From: an uncultured bacterium
Lineage (GTDB): Bacteria > Arandabacterota > Arandabacteria > Arandabacterales > Arandabacteraceae
Direction: 5' to 3'
Length of the DNA: 32,083 nt
NCBI GenBank assembly: GCA_964356335.1
Contig: CAYHHI010000039.1
Span: forward strand, 1 to 32,083
Part shown: positions 1,353 through 32,083 of the stretch, piece after piece
Layout of the letters: every line of letters starts with the position of its first letter
Position numbering within the stretch: the stretch's first letter is position 1
Program-made: the position numbers and the translations under genes
The notes under the pieces: generated by a model
Database searches by the model: none
What the model was told of the DNA's origin: nothing
The model's input: only the letters and a program-made list of their open reading frames with translations

Positions 1353-1742
1353 ATGAAAAGGATGAGATCCCGTCTCTCAAGCCAGGCCGGCTTTACGCTT
1401 ATCGAGTTGATGGTCGTGGTGATAATCATCTCAATCCTCGTTGCGATGGCCATAGCAAACTACATAAGGATGCAGGAGCACGCCAAGAAGACCTCATGTG
1501 TTTCCAATCAGCGGAATATCTATCAGGCGGCGACCATCTACGCATCGGACCACAAGGTTGATGATGGAGAGATGGGTGTTGAGGATCTCCTCGCGGAAAG
1601 AGCTGTGCCCCGAGGCCTTTGCGAGTGTGCCTCAAGCAAGGACAGCAGCTTCGACGATTATACCATAGTCTGGCTTGACGGGCTTCCGCGCGAAGTCAAA
1701 TGCGATATCAAGGGTGACAAGCACCTCTGGCATCATCATTAG
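1353..1742 (+). CDS. prepilin-type N-terminal cleavage/methylation domain protein (type IV pilin or T2SS pseudopilin-like), orphan
   Basis: RBS GAAGGAAG before ATG 1353 (internal Met of the track ORF 1278..1742). Class III leader MKRMRSRLSSQAG followed by FTLIELMVVVIIISILVAMAIANY (G|FTLIE with Glu+5). Four Cys in the C-terminal half (possible disulfide D-region). Confidence 0.8.
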   Translation: MKRMRSRLSSQAGFTLIELMVVVIIISILVAMAIANYIRMQEHAKKTSCVSNQRNIYQAATIYASDHKVDDGEMGVEDLLAERAVPRGLCECASSKDSSFDDYTIVWLDGLPREVKCDIKGDKHLWHHH

Positions 1743-4700
1743 GATCCGCCCGCTTTCTGCCTGGCCTCAGTTATGTTCTTCTTTATGTCTGGGTTCCCTG
1801 GATTCAACTGAAGAGCTTTCTCCCAGATACGGACAGCTCTCTGGTACTCGCCTTTCTCGGCGAGTACGATTGCCAGGTTGTTCATGGCCTCGAGATGCGT
1901 GGGGTTGATCCTCAGGGTCTTCTCATAGTACTTCTGGCCTTTGTCCAAATCATTCTGAAGCAGCCAGGTAAATGCGATGGCGGCCAAGGCCTCGGCATTG
2001 TCGGGTGAGGCCTTGAGGACAAATTCCAGGTCGCGGCGTGCATCTTCGAGGAGGCCTCTCTGGATGAAGCAAAGGGCCCTCAAGTGGTGAGCCCTTGCAT
2101 TAAGGGGCTCCAAGGAGAGCACCTCGGCGACGGTCCTGCTTGCATCATCGGGGTTACCAAGGTCAAGTTCCCCCTCCGCCTCGAGGAGGAAAGCCGGAAC
2201 ATAGTCGGGATTGATCTCGATCGCCTTTCGCAGAAGGGCAACACAGGCAGCCGCATCATGAGTCCTCTCAAGGGTTGCCAGATTATAGAATGCCCGGTAG
2301 CTCTCGGGGTTTTCCTCCACGGCCCGTCTTGCTGCGGTTATGGCCTCCTCGAATCTGCCGCCCTCGGCCAGGGCTCGTGAGAAGGAAATGTAGAAGTCTG
2401 ACAATCTCAATCCAAAGATGCCGTTCTCGGGGCAATTGCTCTTGGCTGTCTCAAGATGGATGGCCGCCTCACGGAACTTGTGGTCTCTCGCAGCGACAAG
2501 TGACTTGAAATAGCCACGTCTCGCAGTCATACCCCTGTGCAGACTGTCGTAAGCCACGTCATACTCAACGGTGCCCTCGTCGAGATTGGCAATCATGGAC
2601 ACAGGCTCTTCGCTTGCCGAATCAAGCCCGAGGAGCGACTGGACCATATCTTGCCCCACAAGTTCCTTGGGTGTCCGGTAGAGGAGGGGAGAGGTATTCC
2701 TCGTGTTCATACGCACCTCACCCGCCCAGGCCAAAAGAGCTTCCCTACCCATCATATAGCATGTGAGCAGGCCGATATCATCTGTGATGCCGAGCCGCAG
2801 CAGGTCATCCTTGACGCCAGGTGCGGCGATTCTCCGCATCAGGGGCTCAGGCTGGATTTTCATGGGCTGCAGACTGGCGACAAGCAACAGTTGGGTTCCG
2901 CCTCCCCACCATAGACCCACATGCGGGAAATAGTAACTAAACTCCTTGGCGATTGATTTAAAGCCGTCTTCTGAGAGGTCGTCAAAGCTTACGACCTGCG
3001 AAACTATTCCACCCGGTCGAAGCCGGGCGCGGGCATTCCGCACGAATTCATCGGGGACCATGGGTTGCTGGCAGATTATCACGTCATACTGCTCCCTGGA
3101 TAGGAGGAGATAATTTGAGGGATCGCATGACAGGAGGCTGAGCCTTGCATCTTGGAGTGCCCCACGATTATAGAATGCGAAGTACCGAGAGGCTTTCACA
3201 ATCGCCGGCACGGGCTCGACGCAATCTATCTGGGTGCCCTCGTAAGCTTCGATTGAACTGATGGTTATCCCGGTGCCGAGTCCTGCGACCAGTACTCGCT
3301 TGGGGTCCCGGTGAAGGAGCATGGGGATGTGAGCGGTGAGCACCTGGGTTGTGACGTCTTCAGACGTGGAAGCGATGGTGCTGCCATTGACTCTCAGAAA
3401 GAGGGCGTCGGGTGATCTCAGAACGGAAATCGCCCGGTCGCGATCCTCTTCGTAGAAAATCACTTCTGCAGCTGAAAGCGCAGCTTTCAGATTCTTAAGA
3501 TCCAGGTACCTTTCCGGATGGATGTAGATGCCGCTGGTGATGATCCCTTTGTTCCAGACAGGTGCGGTGACGTTCAGGGCCAGGGAGATGACTACAAGAG
3601 CGGCCGCAAGCATGAGCCTTGACCAAAAACGTCTTTCCGAAGAAACGATATGCAGGGCACCTGCGACTATGGCAAGCCACGGAATCACCATCAGGGCTCT
3701 TCCCGTCGTGAGGCCAGACGTGGGCACTGCGAGGCTCGTGAGGAACGCAAGCAACGCACCCAAGATGACCACTGATGTTGTAAGTCCCAGCACCCTGGGG
3801 GACGTCGAGCGTCTTGAATCGATTACTCTAACCGCCAGTGGAAACGTGCTGCCCATCAAGAGACCGGGGAGGAAGATTACCAGGAAGCAAAGCGCGAAGT
3901 ATGCGAAGACCACACCATGCCACTCAGGGGACTGGAGACGCGGGGCGAGGCTGAAAAACCTCAAGAAAGCAAAGGGCAGATTGTTGACATAGAGAAATGG
4001 GATGAGCCAAACGATACCCGTGACAGCGGAGGTGGTGCCTAGCCAGTAAGGACCTTCTCTTGAGCTCCGGGCGAGCCTTGCTGATATGCCGGATCCTAAC
4101 GCAAGGGCGGCGAAATAGACAACGAGCGCCGCGGCTGCCATGTACACGGTTTTGCCTGCCACCTGGGAAAGCAAGCGCGCCCAGATGACCGCGCACACGA
4201 CGCCTGAGAAGATGTAAACAAGGTATGCGATAATGTGGAAGGACTGGCCGGCACGGAGAACTGCACCGTCCGGTTTTTCGCTTTCACCAGACGGCGATTG
4301 GTCTTCGTCAGGTTGAAGGCCATTCGATGCATGCTTACTGAGTATGGCAACAAAGCCCATGACAGAAATCAGAAGTGCTGCACTTCCGAGAGCACCTCTT
4401 GCGCCAATATAGGGCATGAGCGCAAAACCTGAGATCGCTCCCCCAGTCGACGCCCCTATACAAAGCATTGAGAAGAATCGATCGCCGGCTTGCGGGGCAT
4501 CCCCGTACCGTCCGAGCAGACTCCAGCCGAGGGAGAGCGTTGCTCCCAGGAGGAAGGCTGGGACAAAGAGCACAGCGAATACAAACACGGCACCGACCAG
4601 CGAAGACACCGTGGAGCCGTGAAAGCCCCCGCATACGGCGCTATAGGGGCCTTCAAGCCTCGAGAGGAGAAGGAGGGCCACAAATGCTGAGGCGCCCCCC

Positions 4701-4957
4701 CCGATTTGGAGGAAGCCAAAGGTCGTGAAAGATCTCGCTATCCTGTCCCCTCTTCGCCCGGCGTAGAGATTGCCCAGAAGCAAACCCAGAAGCAGGGCGC
4801 AGACGACACGAGCATCGTGCAGCGCCTGGCTCCCAAACACGGGTGGGAGCATGCTCGTCCAGGCCGATTGAAATGTGACGAGCGCGAAACCGCAAATCAG
4901 GATCGCCAGAAGCAAGTACGGTGTCGAACCAGATGTCTTTGATCTCAAAAGGTCCAC
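1739..4957 (-). CDS. large polytopic membrane protein with spermidine-synthase-like (polyamine aminopropyltransferase fold) domain and C-terminal TPR repeats
   Basis: 1072-aa ORF with GTG start preceded by GGAGGAG (5-nt spacer). About 14 hydrophobic helices in the N-terminal 600 aa. Central Rossmann/SpeE-like segment (VLVAGLGTGITISS...DVIICQ). C-terminal tandem TPR-like repeats (AEALAAIAF..., AMNNLAIVLAEKGEYQRAVRIWEKALQLNP). Confidence 0.85.
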   Translation of the reverse strand: MDLLRSKTSGSTPYLLLAILICGFALVTFQSAWTSMLPPVFGSQALHDARVVCALLLGLLLGNLYAGRRGDRIARSFTTFGFLQIGGGASAFVALLLLSRLEGPYSAVCGGFHGSTVSSLVGAVFVFAVLFVPAFLLGATLSLGWSLLGRYGDAPQAGDRFFSMLCIGASTGGAISGFALMPYIGARGALGSAALLISVMGFVAILSKHASNGLQPDEDQSPSGESEKPDGAVLRAGQSFHIIAYLVYIFSGVVCAVIWARLLSQVAGKTVYMAAAALVVYFAALALGSGISARLARSSREGPYWLGTTSAVTGIVWLIPFLYVNNLPFAFLRFFSLAPRLQSPEWHGVVFAYFALCFLVIFLPGLLMGSTFPLAVRVIDSRRSTSPRVLGLTTSVVILGALLAFLTSLAVPTSGLTTGRALMVIPWLAIVAGALHIVSSERRFWSRLMLAAALVVISLALNVTAPVWNKGIITSGIYIHPERYLDLKNLKAALSAAEVIFYEEDRDRAISVLRSPDALFLRVNGSTIASTSEDVTTQVLTAHIPMLLHRDPKRVLVAGLGTGITISSIEAYEGTQIDCVEPVPAIVKASRYFAFYNRGALQDARLSLLSCDPSNYLLLSREQYDVIICQQPMVPDEFVRNARARLRPGGIVSQVVSFDDLSEDGFKSIAKEFSYYFPHVGLWWGGGTQLLLVASLQPMKIQPEPLMRRIAAPGVKDDLLRLGITDDIGLLTCYMMGREALLAWAGEVRMNTRNTSPLLYRTPKELVGQDMVQSLLGLDSASEEPVSMIANLDEGTVEYDVAYDSLHRGMTARRGYFKSLVAARDHKFREAAIHLETAKSNCPENGIFGLRLSDFYISFSRALAEGGRFEEAITAARRAVEENPESYRAFYNLATLERTHDAAACVALLRKAIEINPDYVPAFLLEAEGELDLGNPDDASRTVAEVLSLEPLNARAHHLRALCFIQRGLLEDARRDLEFVLKASPDNAEALAAIAFTWLLQNDLDKGQKYYEKTLRINPTHLEAMNNLAIVLAEKGEYQRAVRIWEKALQLNPGNPDIKKNITEARQKAGGS

Positions 4958-4997
4958 GGTATCTCCTCCGACTGGGATCTGTGACTGCCAATGCCTG

Positions 4998-5027
4998 ATT
5001 ATAAGTGTGCCAATGGGTGACTGTCAA
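4998..5027 (-). promoter_or_regulatory. consensus sigma70-type promoter for the 1739..4957 gene: -35 TTGACA (5027..5022), 18-nt spacer, -10 TATAAT (5003..4998)
   Basis: Both hexamers are perfect consensus when read on the minus strand. About 40 nt upstream of the GTG start. Short direct repeats GTGACTG/GCCAATG (4981-4993 and 5007-5023) bracket the -10. Confidence 0.6.
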
Positions 5028-5182
5028 ATCCTTGGGCTGTCCTGTCCGCTCAAGGGGTGCAGTGGAGGCAGATGTGAGTCCTGCACGGCGCTGGCCGGTG
5101 AAGAAGCCTGCCGACAGGGGAGGGTAACGAGAAAGTACCGAGAGGATAACGAGAGGGTGAGGGGAGTGAGGGATAAAGACGA

Positions 5183-5203
5183 GGGGCCCGCGAATGGGGC
5201 CCC
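5183..5203 (-). terminator. GC-rich hairpin (GGGGCCC-N7-GGGCCCC) immediately downstream of the radical SAM gene
   Basis: Perfect 7-bp GC palindrome with a 7-nt loop, 19-39 nt after the stop at 5222. Followed on the minus strand by TCGTCTTTATCCC (modest U-tract). Confidence 0.45.
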
Positions 5204-5221
5204 TTCTCTCGAAGCACATGC

Positions 5222-6583
5222 TTAAACGGCAGTTGCCACTGACTTCTTGGCTTCGTCTTCCTTCTTTATGTGGTCTCTGAGGCTTTCCGCGTATCTGTCC
5301 ATGTCTGGAGCCAGGCTGGTCACAAGCGTCTCAGCTCCAGGATGGGTCGGGTGGGCACCGGTCTCTTTGATCACCTCCCGCAGGATGTGCGGATTGTCTA
5401 TGAGCATGCAGGGCATGCGGTGATCCTGGTTAAAGGGTTGCTTGGCCTGGATGCTCTTGAAGAGCGGCGAGTTGATGACGTCCTTGAGTTTCCTCTGCTT
5501 AATGTTGTCGACCGCGAAATGGCAGAACACGCAAGGCTCGACATCGCCATGGCAATTGATGTGGAGATATCTTCTGCCGCCCGCAATGCAGCCCCCGACG
5601 TAATCGCCGTCATTCCAGAAATCGGCGATAAAGATCGGTCGGGTGGCCCTGAACTCCCGCACGCGCTGGCCGACTTTAAGCCTCTGCTCGGGTGTGGGCA
5701 TCAGGGTCACATCAGGCTTCCTTCCGATGGGGATGTAAGTGAAGACCCAACCCAGGAAGCAGCCCCGCTCGACCCATTCGTCGATGAACTCATCGCTTGT
5801 GACGAAATCCGCATTCTTGGAGGTAACTGTCAGGGAGAAACCGAACAGGCCCTTCCGCTTATTGAGGCTTTCCATTGCCTGGGTTATCTTCTTGAAGGTT
5901 CCCTCGCCTCTCCGCTCGTCGGTCTCTTTCTCGAAACCCTCCACACTGATACACGGGATCACATTGCCCAGGTTCACCAGTTTCTCGCACATGGCATCAT
6001 CCAGCAGCGTGCCATTGGTATAGACCTGGAAAATGCAATCGTCGTGCTTCTGGAAGATATCCAGGAGGCCATCCCACACGAACGGCTCACCGCCAGAAAC
6101 GATATAGAGGTAGATGCCGAGTTCCTTCCCTTCCGTAATGATCCTGTCGAAAACTTCGAATGGAAGATCTTCATTTTTTGTATAATTGCCGGCGTAACAT
6201 CCGTAGCACTTAAGATTGCATCTCATGGTGGGACTGACAACCAGAAGGGAGGGTGGGTAGAACCCTTCGCTCTTGGCGATCCGGTGCCTCTTGTTGGGGG
6301 CGATAAGCCCTTCCTTGACGATCAAGTTGCGCAAGAACTTGTTGCGGGCCTTCGGGTTTATCTCCCGCAGGAACCTCAGAGCAAGCTTGCCGCCGGGGTG
6401 GCCGGCCTCGAATTTCTGACGCGCGCTCCGTATGACCCCGGACCAGTACTCGTTCGTGGTTATCCTTTCCACGACGGATACTACCCTGAGGAGTGCATCC
6501 TCGGAGCCATGGGAGGCTATGCGCGCCATCTTATCGAAGGCGCTCTCGATCGTTTTCTCTTCGATGCGGTCTACTATGTTCAC
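5222..6583 (-). CDS. radical SAM enzyme with Cys-rich C-terminal region (possible auxiliary Fe-S cluster) and ~130-aa N-terminal helical extension; function unknown
   Basis: CNLKCYGCY (CX3CX2C) and VSGGEPF motifs. C-terminal Cys pattern GGCIAGGRRYLHINCHGDVEPCVFCHF consistent with an auxiliary 4Fe-4S domain. Start reassigned to GTG 6583 (GGAGGTGA SD 7 nt upstream; promoter at 6634-6661 lies downstream of the track ATG at 6667). Confidence 0.85.
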   Translation of the reverse strand: MNIVDRIEEKTIESAFDKMARIASHGSEDALLRVVSVVERITTNEYWSGVIRSARQKFEAGHPGGKLALRFLREINPKARNKFLRNLIVKEGLIAPNKRHRIAKSEGFYPPSLLVVSPTMRCNLKCYGCYAGNYTKNEDLPFEVFDRIITEGKELGIYLYIVSGGEPFVWDGLLDIFQKHDDCIFQVYTNGTLLDDAMCEKLVNLGNVIPCISVEGFEKETDERRGEGTFKKITQAMESLNKRKGLFGFSLTVTSKNADFVTSDEFIDEWVERGCFLGWVFTYIPIGRKPDVTLMPTPEQRLKVGQRVREFRATRPIFIADFWNDGDYVGGCIAGGRRYLHINCHGDVEPCVFCHFAVDNIKQRKLKDVINSPLFKSIQAKQPFNQDHRMPCMLIDNPHILREVIKETGAHPTHPGAETLVTSLAPDMDRYAESLRDHIKKEDEAKKSVATAV

Positions 6584-6633
6584 ATTATCACCTCCTCTCC
6601 TTCTCAAAATCCGGACATGAAAACTCGCTTCGA

Positions 6634-6661
6634 ATGATACAGCAGTCCTCTTGGAAGTCAA
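6634..6661 (-). promoter_or_regulatory. sigma70-like promoter for radical SAM gene: -35 TTGACT (6661..6656), 16-nt spacer, -10 TATCAT (6639..6634)
   Basis: Read on minus strand; 5/6 matches at each hexamer. Positioned about 50 nt upstream of GTG 6583. Confidence 0.5.
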
Positions 6662-6772
6662 CCTCAAAATGAGGTCTTACCCACAAACTGTGTTGGTGCC
6701 GGCGGAGTTGACGGGGCACGGCAAACCTGGGCGTGTGCATGATGGCCGCCCGGCTCTATCGACCTCGCTGGC

Positions 6773-7795: not shown

Positions 7796-8017
7796 GGGGC
7801 TTACTCTTTCAGACTGGTACTAGCATACCACAGGCATGTAGCAAAAGTCAAGGTTTATCATAAATGCGGAGTGCGGCATTGAAGCTTGTCTCGCGAAGTG
7901 GTAAGGTCTCATTCGTACCGTGGAGGGTCGCACAGGGTCGCTACGACGGGCAAGATTGCCCACAGGTATCCTGGGAAGTCGACCAGGGCCAGCAAGATAG
8001 CTAGGGCATTGGGGATC

Positions 8018-9796
8018 ATGAATCGCAAGCACACGCTTACCTTGGTCGCCCTCTTAGGCTTTTATTGTATTTCTTACGTGATTCTCACATATCCCTTGAT
8101 ATTGAGATTCGGATCATGCTTCATCGGGGACAAATGGGATGCGTGCATCTTCGCATGGAATGTCTATAACTTCACGGACAGCATTCACCACGGCGTGAAT
8201 CCCTTCTTCACGGACAAGATATTCTATCCGTTCGGGGCCAGCCTCATCCTGCACGTATATGCTCCTCTATATGGCATCGTCGGACTCTTGACGGGCAATT
8301 GCGGCCTTGCCCTGAATGTCACCACATTCGCAAGTTTCGTGCTCTCAGGAATCGGGGCTTACCTCTTGTGCAACTACTATGTGAGGAATGGTCCGATATC
8401 AGCGCTCGCGGGTTTTGTTTTCGCCTATTGTCCATACAAGCTGGTTCATCTTCACGGGCACTACGATCTCATCCTGACCGCCGGCATCCCCTTCTTCATC
8501 CTCTTCTTTGTCAAGTCCTTCAAACAGACAGAGGGTCACAGGCTACCGGAGCTGGCCGATAGAAGGTCCTTCACAACCGCATTGGGGTTCTTCGGCCTCA
8601 CCGTGCTTTCGTGCTACTACTATGCCTTCTTCCTGATCGTCTTTGTCATTCTGTACTTTCTTTACTGGGGTGCCCGCGTATACGATATCAATCTATCCAA
8701 GAAGAAAGCCCTCAGGTACATCCTTATCGTCATCATTTTCTCAACCCTGATAGACAACATTTTCAAGTTCATTCACTTGGACAGGACCGGCGTAGCTACA
8801 AACGGCTTGGCCGGAAGCAGCGACCTATTTGCATTTCTTGTTCCGTCCGCCTATAGCAGATTCTTGGCATTCGATGCGGTCCGCCACATCAAGTTCGATA
8901 TCTTCCGGGTGAATACGGTCGAGACCACCGTATATATCGGCTACACGATCCTCGTCTTCGCCATAGCCTATTTTGTGACAAAGCAACATCGGAACGAAAA
9001 GCCTGAGACCAAGATGCTGTCATACATGGTAGGATGCTTCCTTGTTCTTGCGATGCCCAAAGTCCGCATCCTGGATGAGACCATTTTCAGTCTTCCGACC
9101 GCTCTCGTCCACTACATCCCATTGATCAACAATTTCAGGGCGCCCTACAGGTATTCGATAATGATAATGCTCTTCCTGCCGATCCTATCCGGTCTCTTTC
9201 TCAAAAGGTATGTTCTCGCGTCGATACCAAGACGTCTGCACTTTCTCTTCGTATCAGTTCTGATTCTTTTTCTCTTCATAGAATACATGCAGAAGGACTA
9301 TCCGATGGTCTGCAGGTATGAGGTGCCGAGGATTTACGACCAGCTCGCATCTAAGGAGGATGGCGTCCTATTGGAGATCCCATTTGGACTGAGAGATGGG
9401 TTCAGGAGACTGGGAGACGAAAGGACGGTCGAGCTGTACTACCAGACGATCCATCACAAGAAGATCCTGGCGGGAGTGATATCACGGCGCAGCCGGCGGC
9501 TTTTCAATCGCTTCCGGCAGCAGCCGTTGGCCTGGGACCTTATCAAAATGCAGGAAGACTCGTCATGGACGCCGGCAGCCCCTAATCGGGAAGAGGTGAT
9601 TGGTTTCCTGAACACATTCAACGTCAGGTACATACTGGTTCACCCAGAATACAGAAATGGCCGCATCGAACACCTGATTGAAGGCGCTTTCTCGGATTAC
9701 ATCACGGAGAGAGCCGAGATTGATGGATTTGCTCTGCTGACCCTCGGGCACGAGCCCCTGGGCTCTCGGGAATCGAATTCGCGGGGGCAGTTATAG
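8018..9796 (+). CDS. polytopic integral membrane protein, GT-C-fold glycosyltransferase-like (unassigned family); lower GC than flanks
   Basis: At least 12 hydrophobic helices with a C-terminal soluble domain of about 150 aa. Start moved to ATG 8018 (MNRKHTLTLVALLG...) because the 44-aa upstream extension begins with TTG and is non-hydrophobic. Codon usage visibly AT-richer (TTT/ATT/TAT/AAA) than neighbours. Confidence 0.75.
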   Translation: MNRKHTLTLVALLGFYCISYVILTYPLILRFGSCFIGDKWDACIFAWNVYNFTDSIHHGVNPFFTDKIFYPFGASLILHVYAPLYGIVGLLTGNCGLALNVTTFASFVLSGIGAYLLCNYYVRNGPISALAGFVFAYCPYKLVHLHGHYDLILTAGIPFFILFFVKSFKQTEGHRLPELADRRSFTTALGFFGLTVLSCYYYAFFLIVFVILYFLYWGARVYDINLSKKKALRYILIVIIFSTLIDNIFKFIHLDRTGVATNGLAGSSDLFAFLVPSAYSRFLAFDAVRHIKFDIFRVNTVETTVYIGYTILVFAIAYFVTKQHRNEKPETKMLSYMVGCFLVLAMPKVRILDETIFSLPTALVHYIPLINNFRAPYRYSIMIMLFLPILSGLFLKRYVLASIPRRLHFLFVSVLILFLFIEYMQKDYPMVCRYEVPRIYDQLASKEDGVLLEIPFGLRDGFRRLGDERTVELYYQTIHHKKILAGVISRRSRRLFNRFRQQPLAWDLIKMQEDSSWTPAAPNREEVIGFLNTFNVRYILVHPEYRNGRIEHLIEGAFSDYITERAEIDGFALLTLGHEPLGSRESNSRGQL

Positions 9797-13339: not shown

Positions 13340-13696
13340 ATGGCGAGAGTCCTGATAGTAGACGATGATGCGAGCCTGCGCATCCTTTATTCAAGAGAGC
13401 TTGCCGATGAAGGCTATGAAGTCAAGAGCGTATCATCCGGAAAAGAAGCCATAGATAGCATCGGCGCCGAGAGACCTGACGTCGTGATCCTCGACATAAA
13501 GATGGAAGGCATGGACGGGCTTTCGGTGCTTGATGAGATCATGAAAAGGGACAAGACCATACCTGTCGTCTTGAACACGGCATATTCAACTTTCAAGTCG
13601 GATTTCACAACGTGGAGCGCGGATGCCTACGTCGTCAAGTCAAGTGATTTGACGGAACTCAAGGAGACAGTCAGACAGATACTGCAGTCGGTATGA
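13340..13696 (+). CDS. single-domain response regulator (CheY-like receiver)
   Basis: LIVDDD acidic pocket, phospho-acceptor in VVILDIKMEGMDG, conserved T/K later (LNTAY...K). 118 aa with no output domain. Confidence 0.9.
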   Translation: MARVLIVDDDASLRILYSRELADEGYEVKSVSSGKEAIDSIGAERPDVVILDIKMEGMDGLSVLDEIMKRDKTIPVVLNTAYSTFKSDFTTWSADAYVVKSSDLTELKETVRQILQSV

Positions 13697-13758: not shown

Positions 13759-13834
13759 GTCGCGGTAGCTCAGCTGGTAGAGCACAGGACTGAAAATCCT
13801 GGTGTCCCCGGTTCGATTCCGGGCCGCGACACCA
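13759..13834 (+). tRNA. tRNA-Phe (anticodon GAA), CCA encoded
   Basis: Cloverleaf folds by eye: acceptor GTCGCGG/CCGCGAC, D stem GCTC/GAGC, anticodon stem CAGGA/TCCTG with loop CTGAAAA, T stem CCCGG/CCGGG with TTCGATT, 3' ACCA. Confidence 0.9.
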
Positions 13835-13841
13835 CCTTAAC

Positions 13842-13914
13842 GCTGGTGTAGCTCAGCTGGTAGAGCAGCGCACTCGTAATGCGCAGGTCAGCGGTTCGAT
13901 TCCGCTCACCAGCT
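13842..13914 (+). tRNA. tRNA-Thr (anticodon CGT), no encoded CCA
   Basis: Acceptor GCTGGTG/CACCAGC, D arm GCTCAGCTGGTAGAGC, anticodon stem GCGCA/TGCGC with loop CTCGTAA, T arm AGCGGTTCGATTCCGCT, discriminator T. Confidence 0.9.
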
Positions 13915-17731: not shown

Positions 17732-18181
17732 TTGCGACTGAAAGTGAGTTTCATTGGTTTTTCGGGGTCGAGGGCGAGGAGCGTCATAGAGTCAATTGAG
17801 CAAGCCTCGTCGCTTTCGCTCGAGGCGACAGTCACCAAGGATGCACGCAGTTGTGAGGAAGGTCTTGCAGGCGGGTTTGATGCCGTATTCCTCACGGCCG
17901 AAGTGGGTTACAGGTGCTTGAGCCTCGTCGTGGGCAAGATCCGAAGGGAGAACAAGCGGATTCCGATTGTTCTCACCTATGGTGCGGAGCCGAACGGTAA
18001 GGCATTCGAGCTTGCATCGAAATACGATTGCTGGCTCTTCAGTGAGATGGACCGCCTGAAGAGGGGACTGACTCCCCAGGAGGTCGGAGAGGCGCTCAGG
18101 GCGAGGCAAGAAGATGATAAGATCAAATCACGCCTCATGGAGGTCTCACTCCGCTCAGGTCCCTGCTCCACCGGCGACTAA
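17732..18181 (+). CDS. hypothetical protein with degenerate receiver (CheY-like) fold
   Basis: TTG start 20 nt after the previous stop. beta-alpha pattern with DAVFLTAEVG and IPIVLTYG resembling receiver strands 3 and 4, but lacks the N-terminal acidic pair. Co-directional with the CphA-N-like gene. Confidence 0.5.
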   Translation: MRLKVSFIGFSGSRARSVIESIEQASSLSLEATVTKDARSCEEGLAGGFDAVFLTAEVGYRCLSLVVGKIRRENKRIPIVLTYGAEPNGKAFELASKYDCWLFSEMDRLKRGLTPQEVGEALRARQEDDKIKSRLMEVSLRSGPCSTGD

Positions 18182-20037
18182 GGCAGGCGGTGCCTGAGAA
18201 AATCGATCAGGTTGGTTTTTGTGTTGGTGGACGCCTTTCCATCGAGCAAATCCTGGACATACGCATCGAGATAGGAAGTACTTATCCTCTGAGCTTCGAG
18301 AATTCTTCTTGCCGCCTCGTACGAAGCAACGAAGAATGGGTCCCTCTCAAGACAGTCAAGATAGGCGGTGAAGGCTTGAAGCCTATTGCCTTCCTCGTCT
18401 TCGATCGCACCGATCTGGAAATAGGTCCCTGCGGCGGAAGGGTCCAGGCTGAGCGCATGCTGGGCGAGCCTTCGCGCCTCCGGTCGGTTTCCGGCGAGCC
18501 TCTCCACATAGGCCTTGTTTGCTGTGATCGCCGGCATCTCGTACCTGGAAATGCCGAGGAAATCCACGTTTGAGAGGACGCCCGCAGCGAGAACGACGCC
18601 ACAGGACAGAGCCAGTTTCGGCAAGTCCCTTGACGCAGTGTATCGGAGCAGCATCTCCACGCCATAGGCGGCGAGAGGGATAAGAAACACCACGCCCGGA
18701 AGTCTGAAGCGCTCGCAGACGAAGAAGCCAATACCGACTGCGAAGAAACTTGCGAAGCCCAACACCAGGATGAGAGCCCTGCGATTTGCTCCGAGGACGC
18801 TCACAATGCCGGCAGCGGCAAGGGGAAAAATGATACCAAAATTCAAGGCCGGCAAGAAGAGCCGCTTCCATGCCGATCTGCGCTCGGCTATATCGGCATT
18901 GTTATTGATCTGGGTTCGGGATACTGAGATGAGGGCCTTTCTGCCCAAGAGCCTGAGCCAGCGGCCGGGCTCGCTCGTCGCGAAGCGGATTGCCTGGTCC
19001 GCGAAAAAATCCGAACGCTGTTTGCCCGAAAGCCGCAGCCTGTCTGCTTCTATCCTTACGCGGTTCGCTTCCCCGAACCTGAAGGGATCCATGCCATCGC
19101 TCGCCCGGTTGTTCCCGACGAAGAGATTTACCCCGAAGCTTGATGTGACCGGGATCGCGTCACCCGATATGAGATAATTGTGAGCGAGGCTTGCAAGAAT
19201 GGGCACAAGGAAGCCCGCAATCAGGGCCATAGCCCCTATGAATCTCCGGCCCTTTTCGAAGAGAAGATTGAGCACGAGCAAGCCCGCCATCACGGTTGCA
19301 CCGCTCCACATCAGAGCGCTCACGGCGAACATGGTGCCGCTCGCGGCCAGGTTCTGCATGCGGTGCCGCCGAAGCCAGCTTCGAGCACCCAAGAAGATGG
19401 CAGCCTCGCCCGCCGCAAGTACCGTGAAGAACGCGATGCCTGCCCAGTACAGGTTGGCAGCATACGGCAAGGATTTCCCCTGGAGGAGACCTGCAAGATT
19501 CCTCAAACCCGGGGTCGCATACATAAGAGCCAGAACGCCAGCAAGGCCAAGCGCAGGCACAAAAACGTGTGATGTTTCGGGTCCATCACGTTCCATGAAT
19601 AACAGGGTTCCGACCAGCATGAAAGTCATGAAGATGGTGGCAGGAACGATCTCACCGGCGAAATAGTAAAAGCTCCAGTAGAAAGTCATGCCGAAACCAG
19701 CGGCCAGAGCAGTCCAATTCGAGAAGAGCCGCCGTGAAATCCGGCCCAAGAGGAGGACGTTCAGGGAAAGAAATACGCCCTGACAGACTGCGACCATCAG
19801 CTTGCTCCAACCGGAAAGCCAATAGAAAAGCCCCACAAATGCCGGGTAGAGCGCGCTCAGGAAAAAGGGTTGACCCGCAGGAATCCCCCTGAGGAGTTGC
19901 TTTGCCTCGAGGTCGTAGACCAGGGGATTTGCGACAAGATACTTAAAGAAAGGCTGGCTTCGCGTCTGGCTGACGTAGATCAGGAAGAACCCAAAGGCAA
20001 GGAGCGGCGGTAGGCAAAAGAGCCACCTGTTTTTCAT
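18178..20037 (-). CDS. GT-C-fold membrane glycosyltransferase (GT39/ArnT/DUF2723-like) with C-terminal TPR domain
   Basis: 619 aa. About 11 TM helices in the N-terminal 480 aa. C-terminal TPR-like repeats (AQHALSLDPSAAGTYFQIGAIEDEEGNRLQAFTAYLDCLERDP). Architecture typical of PMT/DUF2723 proteins. Confidence 0.75.
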   Translation of the reverse strand: MKNRWLFCLPPLLAFGFFLIYVSQTRSQPFFKYLVANPLVYDLEAKQLLRGIPAGQPFFLSALYPAFVGLFYWLSGWSKLMVAVCQGVFLSLNVLLLGRISRRLFSNWTALAAGFGMTFYWSFYYFAGEIVPATIFMTFMLVGTLLFMERDGPETSHVFVPALGLAGVLALMYATPGLRNLAGLLQGKSLPYAANLYWAGIAFFTVLAAGEAAIFLGARSWLRRHRMQNLAASGTMFAVSALMWSGATVMAGLLVLNLLFEKGRRFIGAMALIAGFLVPILASLAHNYLISGDAIPVTSSFGVNLFVGNNRASDGMDPFRFGEANRVRIEADRLRLSGKQRSDFFADQAIRFATSEPGRWLRLLGRKALISVSRTQINNNADIAERRSAWKRLFLPALNFGIIFPLAAAGIVSVLGANRRALILVLGFASFFAVGIGFFVCERFRLPGVVFLIPLAAYGVEMLLRYTASRDLPKLALSCGVVLAAGVLSNVDFLGISRYEMPAITANKAYVERLAGNRPEARRLAQHALSLDPSAAGTYFQIGAIEDEEGNRLQAFTAYLDCLERDPFFVASYEAARRILEAQRISTSYLDAYVQDLLDGKASTNTKTNLIDFLRHRLP

Positions 20038-23869: not shown

Positions 23870-23901
23870 CGGTGGGCACGGCAAGATCAGACGGGAAGGG
23901 T

Positions 23902-24948
23902 ATGACAAAGAAGGGTATCCGGCTGACCCAGATGGTCAAGTGTGCGGGTTGAGCATCCAAGATAGGTCCGGGTGACCTGCACAAGATCCTGAGCGGACTC
24001 AAACTCGAGAGGAGCCCTAATCTCATCGTGGGCAGTAACACCCTCGATGACGCGGCCGTATATCGTCTCGCACCCCATCTTGCGCTGGTGTCCACGGTTG
24101 ATTTTTTCACCCCGGTCGTGGATAGCCCCATTGCCTTCGGCAGGATAGCCGCGACCAATGCCATGAGTGACATATATGCGATGGGTGGAAGACCCATTCT
24201 TGCCTTGAACATACTCTGCTTTTCGGAAGAACAAGTTCCCAACGAGATCGTGCGCCGGATCTTGAAGGGCGGCGAGGAGAAGGTGAGGGAGGCAGGAGCT
24301 TTCCTGGGCGGCGGCCATTCGATCCAGGACAAGGAACTGAAGTATGGCTTATGTGTTACAGGCATTGTGAGGCCCGATCGGGTCGTGCGGAACTCAGGGG
24401 CGAGAGTAGGCGACACGCTGATTCTAACCAAACCGCTTGGCATCGGGCTCATGACGACGGGCATGAAGCATGGACTGCTCAAGGCTTCGGCGATTCGCAA
24501 GGTGACCCGCGTGATGGAAGACTTGAACTGGCGTGCATCCCAGGCCATGATGAAGGTAAGAGCAAATGCCTGTACGGACATAACGGGCTTTGGTCTCCTC
24601 GGGCACGCGCTTGAGGTTGCCGAGGCAAGCAGAGTTGCGCTTGAGATTGACTTTGCCAGAGTTCCCGTCATGAGCGAAGCCTACGATATGCTCGAGGCGG
24701 AAGCCATACCAGGCGGGCTCTGGGCCAATAAGGATTTCGTGCGCTCCAGCGTCACCTCAAAGCAGGTGGCGGATCGCGAGCTCAACATCCTGTGTGATCC
24801 CCAGACCTCGGGAGGGCTGCTCATCTCTGTTGATAGCACCAAGGCAGACAGGCTCATGACCCTCCTCGTGCGAGCCGGAGTCCGCGCGGCGAGGCCCGTC
24901 GGAAAAGTGCTTGCAAAAGGTGAGGGGCATATTATAGTTAAGAAGTGA
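23902..24948 (+). CDS. selD: selenide, water dikinase (selenophosphate synthetase), selenocysteine-containing: in-frame TGA at 23950-23952
   Basis: ATG 23902 is in frame with the track ORF 24028..24948. The upstream translation MTKKGIRLTQMVKCAGU*ASKIGPGDL matches the SelD N-terminus (E. coli IRLTQYSHGAGCGCKI), with TGA at the Cys/Sec position. Downstream AIR-synthase-like fold (DDAAVY, ATNAMSDIYAMGG). Confidence 0.85.
23958..23991 (+). promoter_or_regulatory. candidate bacterial SECIS stem-loop 6 nt downstream of the selD UGA
   Basis: Outer stem CAAGAT/ATCCTG (5 of 6 pairs). Inner stem AGGTC/GACCT with apical loop CGGGU about 17-21 nt after the UGA. Confidence 0.4.
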
Positions 24949-24962
24949 CAATGCGAGAGCGG

Positions 24963-25059
24963 GGGAATGGATGGGTTCTGGTGGACCTCAAGGACTTCAA
25001 ATCCTCTGTCGGGTGCTCATAACATCCGAGGTGGGTTCGATTCCCACACGTTCCCGCCA
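24963..25059 (+). tRNA. selC: tRNA-Sec (anticodon TCA), about 97 nt, GCCA 3' end
   Basis: Hand fold: acceptor GGGAATG(G)/(A)CGTTCCC (7 bp + terminal mismatch). 6-bp D stem GGGTTC/GGACCT with 4-nt loop TGGT. Anticodon loop CTTCAAA identical to E. coli selC. Long variable arm (CGGGTG/CATCCG stem). T arm GTGGG-TTCGATT-CCCAC. Discriminator G + CCA. Sits 15 nt after selD. Confidence 0.65.

Positions 25060-31516: not shown

Positions 31517-32083
<567 letters not shown>

Follow-up and report, generated by a model that had tools for sequence, protein, structure and literature searches.

Selenophosphate synthetases (SelD; selenide, water dikinase) of the selenocysteine (Sec) type, encoded by genes with an intragenic SECIS element, have been known since the 1990s. 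In the bacterial Sec-SelD proteins of Aquifex aeolicus and Haemophilus influenzae, Sec lies in the motif G-U-A-[AS]-K-[ILMV]-G-P and the SECIS directly follows the UGA codon; the A. aeolicus structures 2yye and 2zod were solved with Cys at the Sec position. The corresponding residue of Escherichia coli SelD (3u0o) is Cys17, in the sequence GAGCGCK, and E. coli selD needs no SECIS. The E. coli selC gene is presumably not adjacent to selD. The title of a 1996 paper by Guimaraes et al. reportedly asks whether selD is autoregulated. Among the selenoprotein families of prokaryotes, SelD (the 'SelD' family of Zhang et al. 2006) ranks second in how widely it occurs.

The bSECISearch model of Zhang and Gladyshev describes the bacterial SECIS (bSECIS) as a hairpin whose loop has 3-9 nt and whose stem has 4-16 bp, with a UGA spacing of 16-37 nt and a minimum free energy (MFE) of <= -7.5 kcal/mol; one of the first two loop nucleotides is a G, usually followed by G or U (PMC13188914). 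The Sec tRNA is encoded by selC, which is among the signature genes of the Sec-decoding trait (PMC1273633). In bacterial tRNA-Sec (Rfam family RF01852) the anticodon is UCA, the acceptor and T arms are arranged 8/5, the D stem has 6 bp and the variable arm is long.

We have analyzed a stretch of 32,083 nucleotides of DNA from an uncultured bacterium (the window), in which selD very probably encodes a full-length Sec-containing SelD, with UGA codon 17 read as Sec by means of a downstream SECIS and with selC adjoining. This reading is based on the observed family membership of the product, the position of the UGA, the conservation of both UGA and hairpin, the tRNA gene and the normal stop function of UGA at other sites of the window. 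The features referred to below are the following.

23902-24948, plus strand: selD, Sec17 included (selenide, water dikinase/selenophosphate synthetase), from the TIGR00476 match and the alignment with E. coli SelD.
23950-23952, plus strand: UGA codon 17, predicted to be read as selenocysteine, aligned with E. coli Cys17.
23963-23979, plus strand: candidate SECIS upper hairpin with a 6-bp stem and a 5-nt loop, from the bSECIS constraints and comparative pairing.
23958-23991, plus strand: possible SECIS lower tier, 23958-23963 pairing with 23986-23991.
24028-24948, plus strand: truncated selD ORF of 306 aa starting at GTG 24028, from the automated ORF list.
24911-24938, plus strand: tentative candidate for an internal selC promoter (TTGCAA, 16 nt, TATAGT), from a consensus scan.
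24963-25059, plus strand: selC, tRNA-Sec gene with anticodon UCA, from ARAGORN and Rfam RF01852.

The selD frame comprises 348 codons, from ATG 23902-23904 to the TGA stop at 24946-24948, and the TGA at codon 17 is the only one within it. The only other in-frame start codons upstream, GTG 23866 and GTG 23872, come right behind an in-frame stop. Close relatives start the gene with ATG or GTG 13-16 codons 5' of the TGA, and the N-terminal peptide M-T-x-K-G-x-R-L-T-Q-M-V-K-C-A-G is kept. Since both the start position and this peptide are shared with the close relatives, we take ATG 23902 as the start of selD; this is the start that the initial annotation had proposed, its coordinates are correct, and the alignment with E. 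coli SelD begins at residue 1.

Profile searches were carried out with the full-length product, with Cys put at codon 17. The SelD equivalog profile TIGR00476 matched with 384.7 bits (cutoff 125), its positions 1-310 corresponding to residues 7-314 of the product, and NF002098 gave a score of 350 (threshold 299). Because the TIGR00476 match begins at residue 7, the 42 codons that are lost from the gene calls belong to the SelD family as well, and they are thus not the stretch lacking similarity to SelD homologs that would have spoken for a start at 24028. The alignment with E. coli SelD runs from end to end (1-335 against 1-333, E = 2.4e-74), with conservation of Lys20 and of the Asp-rich ATP/metal motifs; C-A-G-U17-A-S-K20 of the product pairs with G-A-G-C17-G-C-K20 of E. 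coli, which has Cys17 where UGA/Sec is found here. The A. aeolicus protein (2yye; E = 5.6e-73) reads S-G-C-A-A-K-V-G-P-G-D-L in the same region. D67, N86, D90, D226, the TKPLG motif and DPQTSGGL, which are Asp/Asn/Thr ATP-metal motifs of the AIR-synthase-like kind, are invariant among 31 homologues. The product is thus, judged by its sequence, a member of the SelD family with the AIRS plus AIRS_C fold, and is predicted to synthesize selenophosphate. It shares fold and family with the A. aeolicus and H. influenzae proteins, has Sec at the same spot of the same motif and an intragenic SECIS candidate directly after the UGA, and does not differ from them in kind.

A cysteine, Cys14, is found three residues ahead of Sec17, giving a C-x-x-U arrangement (C-A-G-U; 23941-23952, plus strand). 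Among 102 Sec-type SelD sequences a Cys at position -3 was present in 22, a Cys at +2, as in the C-G-C of E. coli, in 9, and neither in 67. Cys14 could act as a resolving cysteine that forms a selenenylsulfide with Sec17.

The state of codon 17 was read from the DNA of the window and of 160 retrieved loci; 138 of these sequences could be classified by pattern and 23 could not. Among the matches listed, the contig search gave relatives at <=53% identity, and closer ones were obtained from metagenomes and by exact-protein look-ups. The codon was TGA in 114 and TGT or TGC in 24 of the 138 classifiable homologous sequences, which come from many phyla; since the ranking of the surveyed loci went by how closely they resembled a Sec-type query, 114/138 overstates how frequent Sec-type SelD is in general. 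The proposal that the TGA occupies the conserved Cys/Sec position of the glycine-rich loop is thereby borne out: it falls on E. coli Cys17, is followed by the conserved Lys20, and is shared by most of the classifiable sequences.

Downstream of the UGA, the candidate hairpin consists of the 5' arm UAGGUC (23963-23968), the apical loop CGGGU (23969-23973) and the 3' arm GACCUG (23974-23979). Its loop of 5 nt, its stem of 6 bp and the G at loop position 2, followed by another G, are all within the bSECIS limits, and the 16 nt between UGA17 and the apical loop (23953-23968) equal the lower bound of the allowed spacing. Stem, loop, G and spacing thus agree with the bSECISearch model (PMC13188914), while the N1-N2 pair that closes the loop in the pattern is here C/U and unpaired, the family consensus being C-G. 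The best structure containing the stem has a predicted energy of -8.3 kcal/mol, and the upper stem alone -6.2 kcal/mol. The MFE structure of the 48-nt segment is a competing one, of -9.2 kcal/mol, and the folding energy of this single sequence is not better than that of dinucleotide shuffles (z = -0.37 and +0.54). A scan of 23880-24060 against Rfam at E <= 10 gave chance matches to unrelated families and no SECIS family. Folding of a single sequence can therefore not support a SECIS by itself, and comparative tests were used.

These tests bear on a different reading, in which the hairpin is a by-product of the codons for G-P-G-D-L and the functional SECIS lies elsewhere or takes another fold, such as an alternative register (B, pairs 17-33 to 23-27) or a longer structure. 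The non-significant z-scores are in line with it, as is the fact that register B is paired in 66% of the cells and that the models of the lower tier conflict with one another. Yet when 101 distinct Sec-type sequences were aligned without gaps, the proposed register (A) was paired in 81% of the cells, above every control with the 3' partner slid (25-53%) and stronger than register B. Compensatory cells numbered 19 against 5.3 +/- 2.0 in shuffles, with none of 500 shuffles reaching that value, statistics that are not true probabilities since the sequences are related, conserved codons make up much of the stem, and the structure tested was derived from one of the compared sequences. Pair 18-26 (U18-A26) becomes G-C or C-G where the Asp is replaced.

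Further evidence against a mere coding by-product comes from Cys-type genes with similar peptides, represented by 17 distinct control sequences. In the same columns these genes were 28-61% paired, versus 72-86% for Sec-type genes, and the mean local fold of nt 10-36 was -4.4 kcal/mol as compared with -8.2 kcal/mol in the Sec-type (p = 2.5e-5). Sec-type genes keep the wobble positions of the stem fixed, contrary to the codon bias of the genome: the stem Gly codon is GGU in 48/54 Sec-type and 2/6 Cys-type genes, GGU making up 17% of the Gly codons in the window, and the stem Ile codon is AUA in 34/44 and 4/10, respectively, AUA making up 26% of the Ile codons. Within the clade, 10 of the 122 degenerate selD codons that are invariant at the amino acid level are invariant in nucleotide sequence too, and four of these ten are K20, G22, P23 and D25 (post hoc binomial tail 4.5e-4). 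Taken together, the by-product reading is improbable, and the upper hairpin is well supported, by comparison of sequences, as the SECIS of this gene. The initial annotation had placed a two-tier hairpin with the apical loop CGGGU at SECIS distance from the UGA; distance, loop and upper stem hold, and their conservation is specific to Sec-type genes.

The lower tier, on the other hand, did not fare equally well. It is paired in 72.7% of the cells, versus 23-52% when slid, and has 35 compensatory cells against 15.3 +/- 8.3 in shuffles, with some covariation from wobble to wobble, so that the covariation is modest; in the present sequence it makes the predicted fold no more stable, the two-tier model having an energy of -5.4 kcal/mol. 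Whether a lower tier is part of the SECIS is therefore uncertain. An RNAfold model of a lower tier that includes the UGA was rejected, its comparative support being no greater than that of shuffles.

A further element of Sec decoding is found just downstream, as selC starts 14 nt past the selD stop. ARAGORN called 24963-25059 as tRNA-SeC with anticodon UCA, and RF01852 matched with 71.7 bits (gathering score 47) over model positions 1-91. In the predicted fold the T stem has 5 bp and the D stem 6 bp, the variable arm is long, G73-CCA is encoded, and the acceptor stem has eight positions, i.e. seven pairs and a G.A mismatch at the eighth. The anticodon, the 8/5 arrangement, the D stem and the variable arm are thus shared with bacterial tRNA-Sec, from which this gene is set apart by the mismatch and by the 14-nt gap to the 3' end of selD. 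The adjacency of the two genes was observed in 9/9 clade loci reaching beyond the stop of selD (L081-083, L087 and L161-165), with gaps of 2-15 nt, and this selD-selC module is kept down to ~60% SelD identity. The module sits among housekeeping genes, whose order is kept in the clade: glmM/glmS, sometimes cstA, RidA, selD, selC, DUF5683, lepB, lepA and a hemN-like gene. Searches for selA, selB, selU and other selenoprotein genes found none in the 32-kb window, and neither selA nor selB was found within +/-10 kb of selD in clade relatives.

The tRNA-Sec gene was absent from the observations of the initial annotation, which had suggested that a search be made for Sec machinery in the genome; the presence of selC answers part of that check, and strengthens the view that the organism is a selenium utilizer.

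Gene calling does not recover this selD. The automated ORF list begins the gene at GTG 24028, as had been pointed out before, and the public gene call for this contig (P0122) is the same 306-aa product, in which the catalytic N-terminal loop is missing. Relatives at 58-99% identity in the protein database are essentially all called with 306-329 aa, at 88-94% query coverage, and these shortened calls begin at M/V-G-P-G-D-L just past the position of the TGA or further downstream; the GenBank protein MGQ9810901.1, named SelD, has 327 aa and begins MGPGDL. Full-length calls in the protein database appear only at ~50% identity, with G-C-A-[AS]-K at the site.

That automated callers give precisely the 306-aa ORF, and that TGA is an ordinary stop in this genome, would also fit a TGA that arose by nonsense mutation or assembly error, in which case selD would be a pseudogene or encode a 306-aa protein starting at GTG 24028. 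This is very improbable. Identical TGA codons occupy the same position in 114 sequences, and a private nonsense mutation or sequencing error is ruled out because the codon is common to so many of the classifiable sequences. Moreover, the 16 codons 5' of the TGA are conserved at the protein level and fit the SelD profile, the truncated product would be without the catalytic loop with Sec/Cys17 and Lys20, and a dedicated tRNA-Sec gene adjoins selD. The preferred reading thus remains a full-length gene with Sec at codon 17.

Of the well-delimited genes of the window, 7/22 stop at TGA, among them glmS, lepB and selD, and a scan of the window for TGA read-through gave no second interrupted gene, the candidates being neighbors in the same frame or unconvincing as coding sequence. 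A genome-wide reassignment of UGA to Trp (code 4) or Gly (code 25), with codon 17 as a sense codon other than Sec, finds some precedent in uncultured lineages, and the contig is from a clade of metagenome-assembled genomes (MAGs), but it is scarcely credible and is excluded because TGA is a normal stop in these 7/22 genes, at positions consistent with homologues, besides which no further gene in the window requires UGA read-through and the tRNA with the UCA anticodon has Sec architecture and not the fold of a Trp or Gly tRNA.

With Sec at codon 17, expression of selD would proceed as follows. Translation from ATG 23902 would reach UGA 17, where the SECIS hairpin on its 3' side, formed by the codons for K-I-G-P-G-D-L, would recruit a complex of SelB and Sec-tRNA(Sec), the tRNA being supplied by the selC gene beyond the selD stop. 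Sec would then enter the chain at the catalytic site in the N-terminal glycine-rich loop, after which the ribosome would read on to 24948. It follows logically that selD expression would be Sec-dependent and autoregulatory, as the initial annotation had put it, since SelD makes the selenium donor for the translation of its own codon 17; the output of SelD would be needed for the production of SelD, a positive feedback.

A consensus scan indicated sigma-70-like hexamers within the final 40 nt of selD, the pair stopping 24 nt short of selC, although the number of such pairs in the region is not above chance. In 10 clade sequences (alignment A3) TTGC.AA and ATTATAGT are invariant. The invariance extends to the two Ile wobble positions and to the TT of a codon whose residue is L, F or V. 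Three of the 10 nucleotide-invariant selD codons mentioned above lie within codons 335-345 (post hoc binomial tail 1.7e-3). On these grounds it is possible, albeit doubtful, that the clade has a fixed selD-selC module in which the final 40 nt of selD also serve as a sigma-70-like promoter for tRNA-Sec. An internal selC promoter in the coding sequence of selD is a reasonable hypothesis, modest in scope. If true, the C-terminal peptide KVLAKG.G.IIV would be held under constraint by the promoter, along with its synonymous sites, selD would hold two nucleic-acid signals, the SECIS at its 5' end and the tRNA promoter at its 3' end, and the supply of tRNA-Sec would be uncoupled from the UGA17-dependent translation of selD.

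Public calls for relatives place ORFs on the tRNA-Sec gene as well, either by over-extending the DUF5683 ORF across it or by calling an ORF of 42 aa there. The selD-selC module thereby carries a second annotation artefact. The over-called ORFs, from the public calls, are these.

L161, 10965-11585: ORF called over tRNA-Sec.
L164, 10997-11614: ORF called over tRNA-Sec.
L165, 10930-11058: ORF called over tRNA-Sec.

Some other features of the window were recorded in passing. The nearest named lineages to its LepA are candidate division KSB1 and Latescibacteria, at ~62-64% identity. A CheY-like response regulator (~13340-13696, plus strand) lies directly 3' of a GAF histidine kinase, and genes for tRNA-Phe(GAA) and tRNA-Thr(CGU), separated by an 8-nt spacer, are found at 13759-13914 (plus strand); the position of this pair 5' of a TPR/phosphodiesterase gene is kept across the clade (L162-L164). 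On the minus strand, a radical SAM/SPASM-domain protein (5222-6667 and 4653-5219) adjoins a large TPR/spermine-synthase-like protein (1739-4957), neighbors that could represent a peptide-maturase context. Three ORFs of some size, 7886-9796 (plus), 17732-18181 (plus) and 18178-20037 (minus), had no match in Pfam. The minus-strand one among them, of 619 aa and with faint TPR matches only, is kept in position in all clade loci. At the end of the window dnaJ follows grpE and runs off the end (~31529-32083, plus strand), and since dnaJ occupies this region the minus-strand ORF 31610-32083 is probably no gene.

A Sec-type selD with its SECIS is an ordinary, well-known kind of gene, and the present finding leaves the understanding of selenium biology unchanged. 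Its main value is practical, as it fixes the annotation of a gene whose calls are truncated in this contig and in dozens of relatives. For the organism itself, the corrected selD call together with the adjoining tRNA-Sec gene marks the lineage as a selenocysteine user, and the corrected selD flags the possibility of other UGA-interrupted genes in the genome.
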